The translations under genes were made by a program, and so were the position numbers. From Gemmatimonadota bacterium (GTDB taxonomy: Bacteria; Gemmatimonadota; Gemmatimonadetes; JACCXV01; JAHWKZ01), in NCBI GenBank assembly GCA_039591175.1, contig JBDHED010000001.1, positions 452-64,451 on the forward strand: DNA of 64,000 bases, read 5' to 3'. This document shows positions 6,535 to 38,823 of this stretch, in pieces; within the stretch, counting starts at the first letter, position 1, and the number at the start of each line of letters is the position of its first letter. The notes below the pieces were generated by a model. It did not search any database. It was not told the DNA's origin and saw nothing but the letters and a program-made list of their open reading frames with translations.

Positions 6535-7368
6535 CTAGATCTCGTCCAAAACGCCAGAGTACACGACACGCGCGTGGCCGGTGAGATGCGGGGCGAACGG
6601 TGTCGTGCCACCCTCCCCGCCAGCCGCGTTGAAATCGACTTCGAGCGGGAACCCGCCGCTGGTTTCGACTCGGATCGGAGGTTCTACGGATCCCCACAGG
6701 GATCCCAGTATGGCCGCCGCCACGGCGCCGGTTCCGCACGATAGTGTTTCTGCCTCGACTCCACGCTCGAAAGTCCGCATCCGTATGTGGTGTCGATCCA
6801 CGATCGTGATGAAATCGACGTTTGTGCCGGCGGGCTGCCATCGCGGGTCGAGCCTCAGCCGCCTCCCTTCCCCGCGGATGTCATGGGCGCCGACATCCGC
6901 CACCGTGGCCACGACGTGTGGTGTCGAGGTGTCGACAAAGCCAACGTGCGTATAGGTGGAGCCCTCCAGGTCCGGGTAATCGGTGACGAGCCCGGTCGGC
7001 TCCGGAAGCCGTAACCGTACGGTCGGCTTGGCGGGATCGTCGACACGCGCCTCCAGGGTCCCGCTCTCGGTCGCTACGTGGACCACTGGTTGGCTGGCGA
7101 CACCAATCATCCGCGCGTAACGGGCGACACACATGGCCCCATTCCCACACATCGGGGCCACGCTGCCATCCGCGTTGTAGTACACCATCCTCAGGTCGGC
7201 CCCGGGATCCTCCTCCAGCAAGAGCACCGCGTCCGCGCCGACACCCAGGCCTCGTCGACACAAACGGACGACCGGCTCGCCACCATCCGGAAACCACCGC
7301 GAACGGTTATCGAATACGACGAAATCGTTCCCGCCGCCTGACATCTTCAGGAACGAGCGTGATTTCAC
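6535..7368 (-). CDS. dapF: Diaminopimelate epimerase
   Basis: FLKMSGGGNDFVVFDN and ...MCGNGAMCVARY show the two catalytic Cys regions of DapF. Confidence 0.9.
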   Translation of the reverse strand: MKSRSFLKMSGGGNDFVVFDNRSRWFPDGGEPVVRLCRRGLGVGADAVLLLEEDPGADLRMVYYNADGSVAPMCGNGAMCVARYARMIGVASQPVVHVATESGTLEARVDDPAKPTVRLRLPEPTGLVTDYPDLEGSTYTHVGFVDTSTPHVVATVADVGAHDIRGEGRRLRLDPRWQPAGTNVDFITIVDRHHIRMRTFERGVEAETLSCGTGAVAAAILGSLWGSVEPPIRVETSGGFPLEVDFNAAGGEGGTTPFAPHLTGHARVVYSGVLDEI

Positions 7369-26038: not shown

Positions 26039-26318
26039 TCGACTTCTTCTTCGCCTTTTTCTGTTGTCCCTTCTTGTCATCCTTTGTGGGCCCCGTTTCT
26101 TTCTCTGCCGATGCCTTCGATCGGTACTCATCGCTTCGGTAGTCGGTGATGTAGAACCCAGAGCCCTTGAACAGAAGACCCGCCCCGCCCGAGATTTGAC
26201 GCTCAGCGCGCCCGTCGCACTCTGGACAGCGCCGCGCACGGGCGCGAGTCGCCTTCCTCTGGAAGATCTCAAAGGTGTGATCACATTCAACGCATTTATA
26301 CACGTAAGTCGGCAACAC
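26010..26318 (-). CDS. FmdB-family zinc-ribbon protein with Lys-rich C-terminal tail
   Basis: MLPTYVYKCVECDHTFEIFQ...RCPECDG is the CxxC...CxxC FmdB signature. Tail ...KDDKKGQQKKAKKKSNGSSK. Confidence 0.7.
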   Translation of the reverse strand: MLPTYVYKCVECDHTFEIFQRKATRARARRCPECDGRAERQISGGAGLLFKGSGFYITDYRSDEYRSKASAEKETGPTKDDKKGQQKKAKKKSNGSSKNTSA

Positions 26319-34776: not shown

Positions 34777-36786
34777 CTAGGCTTCGGCCCCGTCCCCGGC
34801 CACGTCCTCCCCGGCTGCGTCGGAACTGGCTTCAGCGAGTGCTTTCGCCGTTTCGGTAGGTGGCGGCTTTTCTTCAGACAGCTCTTCTTCTGGCGCGGCC
34901 TCGTCGGTTTCCGTGGCCTCAACGACTTCGCTTGACTCCTCGACCTCGCTTGACTCAACGGCTTCGCCTGACTCCTCGGCTTCTGAGTCGTCGATGTCCG
35001 GTCGATCGCGGTGACTTGGTATGTCGATCACCGACAGAACGATCCGGCGGTTGTCCGGATCCGACTCGATGACCTTGAGAACCATGAGGTCACCCTCGCG
35101 GAACTTATCGGATGGGTTTTCGAGGTTCCGGTAGCCGAGCTGCGATATGGGAACGAAGCCCTCGACCTCGCCGTCGAGATCGACTACGACCCCCTTGTCG
35201 AGCAGTCGCAGCAGTTTGGCGTCGGTTTCGATACCCACCGAGTACTTTTCGCCGAGTGCTGGCCATGGGTTCTCCTCGAGGTCCTTGATGCTCAGGGAGA
35301 TGCGCTTGTTTTCCGTGTCGATGTTGAGAACCTGCACCCTAACGGTCTCACCCTTGCGAACGACCTCGCTGGGATGGTGGATCCGGCGCGTCCAGGACAT
35401 GTCGCTAATGTGTACCAACCCGTCGATCCCCTCTTCGATTTCGACGAACGCACCGAACGTGGTGAGGTTCCGAACCGTGCCGTTCAAGATCGTCCCCTCG
35501 GGGTATTTCTCTGCCAAGCCAGTCCACGGGTCTTCCTCTATCTGTTTCATCCCGAGGGAGATCTTCTCTTCTTCTTGATTCACATTGAGAACGACGGCTT
35601 CAATGACGTCTCCGATTGAGACGACCTTCGAGGGGTGCTTTATGTGACGAGTCCACGACATCTCCGATATGTGGACCAACCCTTCAACCCCCTTCTCGAG
35701 CTCGACAAAAGCCCCGTAGTTGGTGATCGAGACCACTTTGCCCTGGATGCGCGAGCTCACCGGGAACTTCTCTGCGACATCCTGCCAGGGGTAGGGCTGC
35801 AGCTGTTTGAGGCCCAGAGAGATGCGGTTGTTCTCGAGATCGAGGTCGAGAATCTTGACCTCGAGCTCATCGCCGATCGATACGAGTTCGGATGGATGAC
35901 CCACCCGGCCCCATGACATATCGGTGATATGCAGTAGTCCATCGGCGCCGCCGAGATCGATAAACGCGCCGAAATCGGTGATGTTCTTGACAACGCCTGT
36001 GCGTACCTGGTCGACGGCGATCTCCGTAAGGAGCCGGCCTCGCTTCTGCTCTCTGATCTGTTCGAGGATCGTTCGTCGGCTGACTACGATGTTCCGCCGC
36101 CGCTTGTTGAGCTTGATGATCTTAAACTCCATCGTCTGGCCAATGAGGGCGTCGATGTCGGGAACTCGACGGAGGGCGATCTGAGATCCCGGCAAGAAAG
36201 CATCGACGCCGAATAGATCCACAATCACCCCGCCCTTGATCTTCCTGGCCAGCGTGCCTTGAACGATCGTGCCGTCGTCGTAGGCCAGCCGGATCTTGTC
36301 CCAGACCTTGAAGAAGTCTGCTTTCTTCTTCGACAAGACAACGCGGCCCTCTTTGTCCTCCAAGTTCTCGAGGAAGACGTCCACCTCGGCACCAACGTCG
36401 AGCGGATCCGTCTCCTTGAACTCATCGAGCGAAACCGCACCCTCGCTCTTAAAGCCGACGTCGAGAACAACCACATTCTCATCCACCCGCAGGATATGCC
36501 CAGTGACGATCTGGCCTTCCTTAATGTCCTTGATCGATTCTTCGTAGATACCAAGGAGTTCCTGGTACTCATCGAGCGAGTACTCGTCCTCGTCAAAGAG
36601 ATCGGGGCGGATGTTTAGGTGCTCGGCGGGAGCGTCAGGGTCCACGGGAACCGAGTTGCCGGCAGAGATTCGCGAGGGCATCTCGCTCGACTCACGAGGG
36701 TCTATATCGCCCGGTTCGCGAGGGTCCACGGCAACGCCGCTAGATTCGGGACCACCGCCTGGGGTGGTTTCGTTTAGGTCACTCAT
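34777..36786 (-). CDS. rpsA: 30S ribosomal protein S1 with acidic Glu/Ser-rich C-terminal extension
   Basis: Multiple S1 repeats (GQIVTGHILRVDENVVVLDVGFKSEGAVSLDEF..., ...VRTGVVKNITDFGAFIDLGGADGLLHITDMSW...). C-terminal ...DDSEAEESGEAVESSEVEESSEVVEATETDEAAPEEELSEE. Confidence 0.92.
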   Translation of the reverse strand: MSDLNETTPGGGPESSGVAVDPREPGDIDPRESSEMPSRISAGNSVPVDPDAPAEHLNIRPDLFDEDEYSLDEYQELLGIYEESIKDIKEGQIVTGHILRVDENVVVLDVGFKSEGAVSLDEFKETDPLDVGAEVDVFLENLEDKEGRVVLSKKKADFFKVWDKIRLAYDDGTIVQGTLARKIKGGVIVDLFGVDAFLPGSQIALRRVPDIDALIGQTMEFKIIKLNKRRRNIVVSRRTILEQIREQKRGRLLTEIAVDQVRTGVVKNITDFGAFIDLGGADGLLHITDMSWGRVGHPSELVSIGDELEVKILDLDLENNRISLGLKQLQPYPWQDVAEKFPVSSRIQGKVVSITNYGAFVELEKGVEGLVHISEMSWTRHIKHPSKVVSIGDVIEAVVLNVNQEEEKISLGMKQIEEDPWTGLAEKYPEGTILNGTVRNLTTFGAFVEIEEGIDGLVHISDMSWTRRIHHPSEVVRKGETVRVQVLNIDTENKRISLSIKDLEENPWPALGEKYSVGIETDAKLLRLLDKGVVVDLDGEVEGFVPISQLGYRNLENPSDKFREGDLMVLKVIESDPDNRRIVLSVIDIPSHRDRPDIDDSEAEESGEAVESSEVEESSEVVEATETDEAAPEEELSEEKPPPTETAKALAEASSDAAGEDVAGDGAEA

Positions 36787-36895
36787 AGACAGAAAAACTT
36801 CCAAGGCCTGGTTTCAAAGTGCACGTTTGTACCCGCAACTCGGGGAAAGATATAAAGATACCGGCCGTTTTTACTCTCTGTCAAGCGATTCCGGT

Positions 36896-37594
36896 CTAAG
36901 ACGCCTGATTCATCCGATCCCGGGCCATCCGAACCACCCGCGCGATCTGGGTCTCCAGGTCCAGGTTCGTCGTATCCAGGCGGATGGCGTCTGGCGCCGC
37001 CGCTAGTGGGGCCTCAGCTCGCTCTCGATCGCGCCGATCCCGCTCTGCCAACCCCTGTCCATAGCTAGCCAACAACGCACCATCCAGCTCCCGCCCCTCA
37101 GGCTCGGCCTCGCGAGCCCGCCGGCGGGAGCGTTCCTCCAGGGAAGCGACCAGGTAGATCTTCAGGAATGCCTCTGGGAAGACAACCGTCCCTATGTCAC
37201 GCCCATCAACAACCGCTGGTTTCTCGCCAACCCGCCGCCTGAGGTCCTGATTCACTATCGACCGTAGCGAAGGGTCCTCGGCCACTCGGGACACGGTTCG
37301 GGTAACTGCCGCTGACCGGATCGCACCCGTTACGTCTGTGTCGTCAAGCCAAGTTCGGAGCTTTCCCCCCACCATACGTTGGTCGATGCGCGCGTTCTCT
37401 AGGCGGTCGCGCAACTCCGCCCGGCTGGTTGTCTCCTCAAGATCGACGTCGTGGCGAAGGGCTAACAGCGCCGCTACGCGATAGAAGGCCCCGCTGTCCA
37501 CGTATGACCACTGCAGCGCAGAGGCAACGCCCTGGGCGGTCGAAGACTTGCCCGTACCAGCAGGCCCGTCGATAGCGATGATCGGTGCTTTCAA
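36896..37594 (-). CDS. cmk: Cytidylate kinase
   Basis: MKAPIIAIDGPAGTGKSSTAQGVASAL...YVDSGAFYR. Confidence 0.9.
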   Translation of the reverse strand: MKAPIIAIDGPAGTGKSSTAQGVASALQWSYVDSGAFYRVAALLALRHDVDLEETTSRAELRDRLENARIDQRMVGGKLRTWLDDTDVTGAIRSAAVTRTVSRVAEDPSLRSIVNQDLRRRVGEKPAVVDGRDIGTVVFPEAFLKIYLVASLEERSRRRAREAEPEGRELDGALLASYGQGLAERDRRDRERAEAPLAAAPDAIRLDTTNLDLETQIARVVRMARDRMNQAS

Positions 37595-37615: not shown

Positions 37616-38227
37616 TTAGCCCGAATGCCTTATGCAACGAAAGGCGGTGGGGATCTCTTCGAGACGGGCGCGTAGAATCGGTCGCCCGCACACCTGGCAC
37701 TTTCCATACTGTCGTGAGTTAATGAGTGTCAGCGCGGTCTGGATCCGGCGCAGCTCCTCCTGCTCGCGTTGTTCAAGCCGAATCAAGATATCGCGATCCT
37801 TCTCCTCTTGCGCCCACTCCTCCAACTCCCGCGGTCGCTCCTGAATGCCTCGCAACTCGTCGCGGAGATCGTGCAGACGTCGCTCGATTCGGCTTCGCTT
37901 CTCGAGCAGCTTCTCGCGAAAGTGATCGAAAAACGCTTGACTGCGGTACGGCCGGCCCCCTTTTTTCTTGGCTTTCTTTTTTCTAGTCGTCTTTTTCTTG
38001 CGAGTGGCCTTCTTTTTCTTGCCGGGGGCTTTCTTCTTCTTGGTCGCCTTCTTTTTGCGAGCGGCCTTCTTCTTCTTGCTAGGGGCTTTTTTCTTCTTGG
38101 TCGCCTTTTTTTTGCGAGCGGCCTTCTTCTTCTTGCTAGAGGCTTTTTTCTTCTTGGTCGCCTTTTTCTTGCGAGCGGCCTTCTTCTTCCCCGCGGTCTT
38201 GCGTTTTGGTTTCTTCTTAGCAGGCAT
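37616..38227 (-). CDS. DksA/TraR-family C4-type zinc-finger protein with an N-terminal ~100-aa histone-H1-like lysine/alanine-rich repeat region
   Basis: N-terminus MPAKKKPKRKTAGKKKAARKKKATKKKKASSKKKKAARKKKATKKKKAPSKKKKAARKKKATKKKKAPGKKKK... C-terminus ...FFDHFREKLLEKRSRIERRLHDLRDELR...QYGKCQVCGRPILRARLEEIPTAFRCIRH, a DksA/TraR coiled-coil plus Cys zinc finger. Confidence 0.7.
   Translation of the reverse strand: MPAKKKPKRKTAGKKKAARKKKATKKKKASSKKKKAARKKKATKKKKAPSKKKKAARKKKATKKKKAPGKKKKATRKKKTTRKKKAKKKGGRPYRSQAFFDHFREKLLEKRSRIERRLHDLRDELRGIQERPRELEEWAQEEKDRDILIRLEQREQEELRRIQTALTLINSRQYGKCQVCGRPILRARLEEIPTAFRCIRHSG
37975..38195. repeat. Roughly 60-bp tandem direct repeat (about 3.5 copies) inside the DksA-like gene, encoding the 20-aa K-rich unit AARKKKATKKKKAPSKKKK
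   Basis: The unit tcttggtcgcc(t)tttttgcgagcggccttcttcttcttgctag(g/a)ggcttttttct recurs from about 38037 to 38190 with single-base differences. Confidence 0.7.
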
Positions 38228-38251
38228 TCATTTCCCCGTTTATCGACGGTT

Positions 38252-38267
38252 CTAGGCGGCCGCCTAG
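38252..38267. promoter_or_regulatory. Perfect 16-bp palindrome CTAGGCGGCCGCCTAG between the LytR_C gene and the DksA-like gene
   Basis: Read directly at 38252-38267. No U-tract follows on the coding (minus) strand, so it is not a canonical intrinsic terminator. It could be an operator or RNA hairpin. Confidence 0.25.
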
Positions 38268-38307
38268 TGTAGTCGCGCGCAAAGGCCTCGGCAACAAAGT
38301 TCGATCG

Positions 38308-38823
38308 CTAACCGCCTGTTAATCGGTCCAGCCACCTGCGCCAGCCCGATCCGCGGTCGGAGGCCTCGTTTCTCGAGCGCAGCAGTACCGACTCAAGGTC
38401 GTGGCCGATCACGATCGTCACATCGAGGAAGAGGGTCGAATCAGGACTTGCTTCAATCGGGACGCCTGGAAACAACGTCGCTACTTCCCGCGCCGCGGTC
38501 GAAGAGCCTACGCGATCGATGATGTGGGTGCGCTCATAGTCGAATCGGTCGGCGTTGCCGTAGTCGACCACATCGAACCCTCCGTCGCGCAAGAAGGTCG
38601 TCACCTTCCCAGCCGCACCCGATGCCCCCGAACCGTTGCGCACTTCGACTCGGATTCGGGACCGATCGATCGCTGGCACTGACTCACTGCTGTTCTGGTC
38701 GGGCCCAAGGCCCCCCTGTGCGCCAGCCCCGGTGTGCCGAGCGATCGTCGACATCAAAAACGTCCCCACCAAGGCCGCAAAGAGGGCGATCGCGCCGACC
38801 TCGAGGATCCCTCTTCGAAACAT
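38308..38823 (-). CDS. LytR_C (LytR/CpsA/Psr C-terminal) domain membrane-anchored protein
   Basis: N-terminal TM ILEVGAIALFAALVGTFLM. C-terminal ...RIRVEVRNGSGASGAAGKVTTFLRDGGFDVVDYGNADRFDYERTHI... is typical of PF13399. The start was taken at MFRRGIL because the ORF-track N-terminus overlaps the HD gene. Confidence 0.65.
   Translation of the reverse strand: MFRRGILEVGAIALFAALVGTFLMSTIARHTGAGAQGGLGPDQNSSESVPAIDRSRIRVEVRNGSGASGAAGKVTTFLRDGGFDVVDYGNADRFDYERTHIIDRVGSSTAAREVATLFPGVPIEASPDSTLFLDVTIVIGHDLESVLLRSRNEASDRGSGWRRWLDRLTGG

Follow-up and report, generated by a model that had tools for sequence, protein, structure and literature searches.

The closest described counterpart of the gene considered here is DdbA (SCO2075) of Streptomyces coelicolor, named a 'DksA-like DNA-binding protein' (Aldridge et al., NAR 2013, PMC3643593). 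Its N-terminal histone-H1-like domain of 93 amino acids (aa) contains lysine-rich pentapeptide repeats, varies in length among species, and binds and condenses DNA in vitro, which the C-terminal domain alone does not do (PMC3643593). Overexpression of full-length DdbA suppresses a relA phenotype. In the proposal of its authors, a DksA-like domain with an H1-like tail might physically link DNA conformation to RNA polymerase (RNAP), a design that they took as confined to streptomycetes (PMC3643593). A protein of this general design is encoded in a stretch of 64,000 nucleotides from a Gemmatimonadota bacterium (assembly GCA_039591175.1, contig JBDHED010000001.1, positions 452 to 64,451), the whole of which is referred to as the window. 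In this protein a polylysine tail at the N-terminus precedes a DksA/TraR-family core; a protein 100% identical to it (P0001) is present in both NCBI and JGI under the name 'RNA polymerase-binding protein DksA'. The pairing of an H1-like tail with a DksA-like domain is already known from DdbA. What is new here is a Gemmatimonadota form with a glutamate-tipped coiled coil, a Cys3His zinc site and no C-terminal helix, which is uncharacterized. The coordinates of the gene, its parts and its neighbors are collected in Table 1.

The initial annotation, made from the DNA letters and a list of open reading frames (ORFs), had placed the C-terminal half of the protein in the DksA/TraR family, and this placement holds. 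Residues 172-199 score 30.2 bits with the PF01258 profile (zf-dskA_traR), whose gathering threshold is 24.9, and HMMER searches against sequences of solved structures retrieve Pseudomonas aeruginosa DksA2 (4ijj, 1e-9), Atu0905 (2kq9, 9e-9) and Escherichia coli DksA (1tjl, 7e-8), with a weaker match to the Chlamydia Dks protein (6ptg, 5e-6). The PF21173 profile (DksA-like_N) is matched below its threshold, at 20 bits versus 27. An AlphaFold2 (AF2) model built from a 49-sequence alignment predicts the core with a predicted local distance difference test score (pLDDT) of 84-97, as two helices spanning residues 97-130 and 135-170 and then the zinc ribbon. The top Foldseek match of this model in the PDB is DksA2 4ijj (E 7.6e-7, root-mean-square deviation 1.3 A over 108 columns, target-normalized TM-score 0.79), and the next are E. 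coli DksA 1tjl and the RNAP complexes 5vsw and 7khi. Model and Foldseek comparison agree on an antiparallel two-helix coiled coil ahead of the zinc ribbon, and hence on the overall DksA fold. Judged from these profiles and the predicted structure, the assignment of the C-terminal half (aa 93-203) to a DksA/TraR-family coiled coil with a zinc ribbon is sound.

The zinc finger had been described as a Cys finger. A zinc ribbon is indeed present, but the site reads CxxC-x17-CxxH (Cys3His) rather than the all-Cys C4 arrangement CxxC-x17-CxxC, the fourth ligand being a histidine. Histidine is able to ligate zinc. The identity of this fourth ligand (H201, codon 37625-37627) switches among subclades of the Gemmatimonadota relatives, with His in 30 of the 80 clade members and Cys in the other 50, and the His form also occurs sporadically in unrelated short TraR/DksA outgroup proteins. 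The protein ends two residues past its last zinc ligand, as do all 80 clade members, and so lacks the C-terminal helix of DksA (residues 135-151 in E. coli).

The tail is a strong polycation, 54% lysine, with 57 positive charges and no D or E over its 92 residues, and the AF2 model leaves it disordered, residues 1-96 lacking secondary structure and having pLDDT values of 51-58. The DNA that encodes it has a GC content of 0.49 compared with 0.62 for the window. Lysine is encoded by AAA in 17 of 50 cases in the tail and in 12 of 49 in five neighboring genes, and A-runs of 6-8 nt in the tail DNA (37952-38227) are potential sites of polymerase or ribosome slippage. Tandem Repeats Finder detects an array at 37970-38189 with a period of 57 bp, 3.9 copies, 90% matches and a score of 335, far beyond chance. 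The repeat reported in the initial annotation is therefore real, although its unit is 19 aa or 57 bp long and not 20 aa or about 60 bp. Near-perfect repetition, claimed for about 100 aa, applies to three units with the consensus AARKKKATKKKKA[SP][SG]KKKK; the fourth is degenerate. The three good units show pairwise DNA identities of 96.5, 91.2 and 87.7% (2-7 differences per 57 bp), and about half of the differences are synonymous. Single-base differences, as the repeats had been said to show, fit the first pair (96.5%) and not the others.

Relatives of the protein were sought in several ways that differ in reach. A word-seeded homologue search returned about 80 proteins of 50-100% identity, all with a basic N-terminal tail, and its named members are 'TraR/DksA ... 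[Gemmatimonadota bacterium]' entries. A scan that took a single genome from each species gave 29 loci, every one of them in metagenome-assembled genomes (MAGs) of Gemmatimonadota or Gemmatimonadales; the scan patterns, two exact peptides (EEWAQEE and KDRDILIRL), reach the tight clade only, and the result does not bear on cultured Gemmatimonas species. Word-seeded searches favor lysine-rich proteins, and an exhaustive HMMER search with the core only served as the unbiased control. Among 1.84 billion representatives this search returned 11 clusters at E<=4e-23 with identity of at least 57%, and beyond these the matches drop across a sharp gap to E>=2e-13 and identities of at most about 46%. These nearest relatives outside the clade are mostly tail-less. 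Many of the tail-less proteins share an E-x-E-E-x-A-Q tip and some have the CxxH site, and the Glu tip and CxxH mark a broad, uncharacterized 'short' subfamily and not the window protein alone. Many of the short TraR/DksA proteins nearest to the core (P0140, P0149, P0153, P0171, P0202, P0208, P0238, P0240) carry an acidic C-terminal extension of 100-160 aa with a D+E fraction of 0.2-0.3, opposite in both charge and position to the tail of the window protein.

The most conserved part of the family lies at the end of the coiled coil. The approximately 80 homologues, which elsewhere fall to about 55% identity, keep the block PRE[LM]EEWAQEEKDRDILIRLE, made up of the tip and the adjoining first half of helix 2, almost unaltered, and an alignment of 11 diverse sequences shows no change from E136 to E152. 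In DksA it is the corresponding segment that enters the RNAP secondary channel (PMC4010833). This correspondence, together with the strong conservation of tip and helix 2, suggests that the coiled coil has kept its contact with a highly conserved partner. On the comparisons made, the gene belongs to the DksA/TraR family, is specific to Gemmatimonadota and has been inherited vertically.

In contrast to the core, the tail is conserved in character and not in sequence. Full-length proteins with a tail of at least 40 aa make up 74 of the 80 family members; in these the tail measures 46-140 aa (median 101), the K+R fraction is 0.31-0.63 and the median D+E is 0. The tandem arrays differ by lineage, from 57 bp x 3.9 in the window to 36 bp x 9.2 (L005), 36 bp x 3.8 (L003), 36 bp x 4.4 (L007), 39 bp x 7.2 (L023) and 15 bp x 11.6 (L026), with none in L012, and all of the periods (57, 36, 39 and 15 bp) are multiples of 3. 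Despite these different repeats, every full-length orthologue has an open frame and a basic tail. The tail has been turned over by in-frame tandem duplication, and a basic tail is conserved in every orthologue. The distant members L028, L030, P0127 and P0133 have basic tails rich in Arg, Ala and Pro instead of Lys. The 15-bp x 11.6 array of L026 (DATLFH010000076.1, 3671-4333) encodes literal KPAAK repeats, similar to the KPAA-type repeats of Pseudomonas AlgP, which we take to be convergence on the same repeat.

Recent expansion and possible copy-number variation had been suggested from the near-identity of the units, and both are borne out between strains as well as between species: among relatives whose cores share 94-98% identity with that of the window protein, tail lengths are 56, 79, 84, 108 and 131 aa. 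Lengths taken from MAGs need caution, since lysine arrays break or corrupt short-read assemblies, as seen in L004 (JBDHIC010000029.1, 115-642), where the contig breaks off within the lysine array and the gene, in its upstream part, reads in the +1 frame (RRKRPRRRRP...). Frameshift phase variation as a designed switch was considered and is unlikely, as all tandem periods are multiples of 3, even though there are A-runs of 6-8 nt and the frame is lost in L004, more probably through a mistake in assembly or sequencing. Selection may act on the charge and length of the tail and not on its sequence, with slippage or unequal recombination in the lysine-codon repeats continually remaking it. Such remaking is proposed to account for the three nearly identical 57-bp units in the window genome.

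Taken together, we favor a combined model, with a probability of roughly 55%, in which the coiled coil would dock in the RNAP secondary channel, as those of DksA, DksA2 and TraR do, and the tail would bind DNA non-specifically and concentrate the factor on the nucleoid. The tail would leave the globular domain at the rim of the channel, in place of the segment with which the globular domain begins in E. coli DksA, and would bind DNA or another polyanion in the way that the H1-like N-terminal domain of DdbA binds DNA in vitro. The factor could thereby be kept on the nucleoid beside transcribing or promoter-bound polymerase, and may also help to compact DNA. The action on polymerase would more likely be independent of guanosine tetraphosphate (ppGpp), as is that of TraR.

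Several observations weigh against this model. Polycationic tails also bind polyphosphate (polyP) and RNA, and for the window protein the binding of both RNAP and DNA is proposed by analogy with other proteins. The tail, which had been called H1-like, has the corresponding composition, a disordered K/A/P/T/S-rich polycation of short repeats as in histone H1 and Hc2; however, the window protein matches neither Pfam HC2 (PF07382) nor linker histone profiles at E<=10, so that 'H1-like' describes composition and not homology. Precomputed PF07382 matches are found in a few relatives, such as P0062. In the core, the Asp-Asp tip motif that the initial annotation had proposed looking for is absent: E134, E137 and A139 occupy the positions of D71, D74 and A76 of E. 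coli DksA, giving an ExxExA tip instead of DxxDxA in a register that was obtained by ungapped counting from the CxxC motif and agrees with the HMMER alignment to DksA2 4ijj. In E. coli DksA the D74E substitution causes loss of function, an intact DxxDxA has been proposed as an indicator of DksA-like function, and RSP0166 of Rhodobacter sphaeroides, a short protein with a Glu tip and no C-terminal helix, neither complements an E. coli dksA mutant nor has a phenotype (PMC4010833). On the other hand, the D80E variant of the Rhodobacter DksA RSP2654 stays active on RNAP (PMC4010833), which indicates that context matters for a Glu tip. Of the six residues listed for ppGpp site 2 (bioRxiv 10.1101/188680), the window protein keeps two, R91 as R154 and K98 as an arginine (R161), and replaces K94, L95, R129 and K139 by E157, E158, I192 and S202; with most of the site replaced, ppGpp dependence at site 2 is unlikely. 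The scores against the NCBIfam DksA equivalogs (TIGR02420 / NF033459) fall short of their thresholds, at 55.5 versus 115.5 and 53.4 versus 105, roughly half in both cases, and at 30.6 versus 289. Given the deviations in tip, zinc site, C-terminal helix and ppGpp site 2, normal DksA behavior is not to be assumed, and the features of its sequence indicate that the window protein is not a canonical DksA.

The same deviations invite the explanation that the protein is mainly a nucleoid-associated, DNA-compacting protein whose core serves oligomerization, metal or redox sensing or some partner other than the secondary channel. The ExxExA tip, the missing C-terminal helix and the sub-threshold equivalog scores agree with it, as does the fact that its closest characterized short homologues, RSP0166 and Atu0905 (2kq9), are without demonstrated DksA activity; the tail-less relatives with the E-x-E-E-x-A-Q tip and differing acidic C-terminal extensions further suggest varied roles. 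We nevertheless consider this explanation unlikely, if a serious contender, because a tip and helix 2 that hardly vary point to a strongly conserved surface on the partner, for which the active-site channel of RNAP is the best fit, because the tip is still acidic, and because RSP2654 D80E still works on RNAP. Gre factors, moreover, use Asp/Glu tips. A second explanation retains the DksA-like factor and changes the target of the tail, which would bind polyP granules or RNA and ribosomes instead of DNA and so link the factor to polyP condensates or to translation. Gemmatimonas was reportedly isolated as a polyP accumulator, and the gene lies directly upstream of cmk-rpsA. The H1-like protein AlgP localizes to polyP granules, lysine-rich stretches bind polyP non-covalently (PMC9239181, PMC12077175, PMC11894788), and papers citing Gray 2019 state that E. 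coli DksA regulates polyP accumulation. In distant orthologous loci, however, inserts of up to 3.6 kb separate the gene from cmk-rpsA, and the demonstrated ligand of DdbA, the sole studied homologous architecture, is DNA. Polycations bind all polyanions, such that DNA and polyP are not exclusive targets, and the support for the polyP or RNA target consists of analogy and gene context and is not direct. It seems quite improbable as a substitute for DNA binding.

A different kind of objection holds that the repeat, or the whole tail, is an artefact of assembly or annotation and that the real protein is a tail-less TraR/DksA of about 110 aa. The L004 contig, which stops inside the repeat and out of frame, shows how short-read MAG assemblies struggle at such arrays, and tail-less short TraR/DksA proteins are the commonest relatives. 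An assembly artefact had also been named in the initial annotation as a finding that would overturn it. Yet an independent JGI contig, from another sample and a slightly different strain, carries the identical gene and array with 5 mismatches in 6.8 kb, and the repeat is thus not an assembly artefact; the open frame and basic tail of all full-length orthologues, noted above, speak equally against an artefact. The start of translation leads to the same conclusion. A Shine-Dalgarno-like motif precedes the ATG that opens the tail; of the 17 orthologous loci compared, most have a purine-rich motif (ACGGGGAA / CGGGAG / CCGGAG) at the same spacing before this ATG, and the protein start M-[PA]-x-KKK is conserved. 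No in-frame ATG, GTG or TTG is present in the window gene ahead of codon 125, a codon within helix 1, and synthesis of the core therefore requires translation of the tail. We regard an artefactual tail as almost certainly wrong. A tail-less isoform, considered as a separate candidate, is ruled out on the same ground, the first in-frame start codon coming no earlier than codon 125.

Table 1. Position of the dksA-like gene, its parts and its neighbors in the window.
Feature	Position	Strand	Basis or remark
dksA-like gene, complete, 203 aa	37616..38227	(-)	ORF listing; ATG start, stop codon 37616-37618
Shine-Dalgarno-like GGGGAA	38232..38237	(-)	5-10 nt upstream of ATG
Poly-lysine tail, aa 1-92	37952..38227	(-)	K 50, A 16, R 7, T 7, P 4, G 4, S 3; acidic residues 0
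Three near-identical 57-bp / 19-aa units, aa 17-35, 36-54, 55-73	38179-38123, 38122-38066, 38065-38009	(-)	Codon-level dissection
Fourth, degenerate repeat unit, aa 74-92, ATRKKKTTRKKKAKKKGGR	37952..38008	(-)	60-65% DNA identity to other units
Coiled-coil helix 1, aa 97-130	37838..37939	(-)	AF2, pLDDT 84-97; weak PF21173 DksA-like_N match
Coiled-coil tip RPRELEEWA, aa 131-139	37811..37837	(-)	AF2 loop 131-134
Coiled-coil helix 2, aa 135-170; strongest conservation in the family	37718..37825	(-)	AF2
Zinc ribbon C177-x2-C180-x17-C198-x2-H201	37625..37699	(-)	PF01258, motif scan; AF2 pLDDT ~95
LytR_C domain protein, upstream neighbor	38308..38823	(-)	PF13399 on called gene in L001
cmk (cytidylate kinase)	36896..37594	(-)	21 bp downstream of dksA-like gene; Pfam families of called genes in L001
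rpsA	36804..34777	(-)	Next after cmk; Pfam families of called genes in L001

The surroundings of the gene are shared by its orthologues, which follow the order panC, glmU-like, orf165, LytR_C, dksA-like, cmk, rpsA. The LytR_C gene lies upstream of the dksA-like gene in 26 of the 29 loci, and distant orthologous loci have an insert of 0-3.6 kb ahead of cmk. A scan for promoters and terminators found none between the dksA-like gene and cmk, and none above shuffled expectation, a result that says nothing about operon structure. The 64-kb window contains no second DksA/TraR ORF. Two ORFs on the plus strand, at 37769..38272 (167 aa) and 37968..38255 (95 aa), were rejected as genes: they are Phe/Leu-rich mirror images of the lysine codons and have no supporting relative. 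The sole other lysine-enriched ORF segment in the window, at 26043-26132 (-), has 10 K in 30 aa and lies inside an ORF of 109 aa.

The downstream rpsA gene has a repeat of its own at its 3' end (34777-34830, (-)), where ribosomal protein S1 bears a long acidic, repetitive C-terminal tail (...SEAEESGEAVESSEVEESSEVVEATETDEA...). The near-identical JGI contig L001 loses register with the window from position 6859, exactly at this acidic repeat, which indicates an indel in the repeat. The JGI gene call at rpsA joins S1 and an ANF_receptor/Peripla_BP_6 protein in one fusion product of 1207 aa.

The architecture had been called unusual in the initial annotation, a description that does not stand, given that it has been published for DdbA, is the rule in the Gemmatimonadota clade and recurs in at least 119 clusters of canonical DksA. 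K-rich N-terminal tails occur on canonical DksA proteins with a DxxDxA tip, as in P0110 (L031, 3001-3939) and P0081 (L032, 3001-3636), each followed 0.1-1.2 kb downstream by a tRNA-synt_1c (gluQ-type) gene of the same orientation, and P0103, P0082 and P0255 represent further subfamilies with K-rich tails. The largest set came from a word-seeded search, in which all 119 of the best matches of P0089 have a tail of 54-138 aa, a median K fraction of 0.41 and an intact DxxDxA tip; lysine-tailed canonical DksA proteins thus account for at least 119 database clusters. Three of the 119 carry a name at NCBI, that of an 'RNA polymerase-binding protein DksA' from Gammaproteobacteria or Thiohalophilus; P0089, P0281, P0284 and P0357 ('Thiohalophilus sp.') are examples of the set. 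These canonical proteins acquired their tail independently. The literature searched contains no paper describing the Gemmatimonadota or gammaproteobacterial lysine-tailed cases. The distribution of tailed proteins indicates that the design is widespread in environmental bacteria and evolved repeatedly, on a divergent Glu-tipped Gemmatimonadota core as well as on fully canonical DksA.

The frequency with which tail-DksA fusions originate is a more notable by-product of this analysis than the window gene itself, and with it the idea of a nucleoid-tethered secondary-channel factor becomes testable in several systems. The blanket 'DksA' label of annotation pipelines hides both the tail and the loss of DxxDxA, and the window gene is better named a TraR/DksA-family protein with a polycationic tail than DksA. 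A far broader proposal can be formulated, although we regard it as a long shot. The repeated addition of basic tails to DksA/TraR factors (in DdbA, Gemmatimonadota, gammaproteobacterial DksA and at least three further subfamilies) might reflect polyanion tethering as a general and overlooked layer of transcription control. The Glu-tipped Gemmatimonadota core, largely without ppGpp site 2 and with its tail of 57 charges, would then be a ppGpp-independent regulator whose local concentration at RNAP is set by nucleoid compaction or polyP condensates and tuned between strains by repeat number.

Comparison with known systems places the window protein near, but not within, each of them. Like the window protein, DdbA begins with a basic, lysine-rich and repeat-containing tail of about 93 aa, followed by a DksA-like coiled coil and zinc finger, and its tail varies in length between species, as in the Gemmatimonadota family. 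The two differ in that DdbA keeps D71/D74 and four Cys, whereas the window protein combines E134/E137 and Cys3His with the lack of a C-terminal helix, and in phylum and locus, DdbA lying near ftsZ in the core genome of Streptomyces and the window gene between LytR_C and cmk-rpsA. The synteny of the 29 Gemmatimonadota loci and the lack of any protein outside the clade above about 46% core identity do not support orthology with SCO2075. With DdbA taken from its published description, the Gemmatimonadota fusion is probably analogous to it and independent in origin, not orthologous.

Canonical DksA, represented by E. coli (1TJL, 5VSW, 7KHI) and by P. aeruginosa DksA2 (4IJJ), has the same fold of coiled coil and zinc ribbon, and the window protein shares with E. 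coli DksA the residues A76, R87, R91 and R125 and three of the four Cys. It departs from canonical DksA in its ExxExA tip, in the His at C138, in the loss of the C-terminal helix, in the E, E, I and S that replace four site-2 residues, and in the 92-aa polycation that stands for the N-terminal part of the globular domain. The lysine-tailed canonical DksA proteins likewise differ from the window protein in having the DxxDxA tip, four Cys (or a two-Cys variant) and the C-terminal helix. The short DksA/TraR proteins RSP0166 and Atu0905 (2KQ9), the latter the second-best PDB sequence match, have no basic tail, unlike the window protein.

The tail itself resembles the H1-like low-complexity domains of AlgP and PhaF of Pseudomonas, Hc1/Hc2 of Chlamydia, the HupS/Hlp tails and some myxobacterial CarD proteins in being a disordered K/A/P-rich polycation of short tandem repeats with a strain-variable copy number. 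Clonal variation of the algP repeats is among the findings cited in PMC11894788. CarD, as outlined in PMC2919716, is another RNAP-binding factor with a basic DNA-binding tail, which in some myxobacteria takes the form of an H1-like C-terminal domain. Compared with the domains of AlgP, PhaF, Hc1/Hc2, HupS/Hlp and CarD, the tail of the window protein is N-terminal, richer in lysine (54% K), without S/TPKK motifs and joined to a different partner domain.

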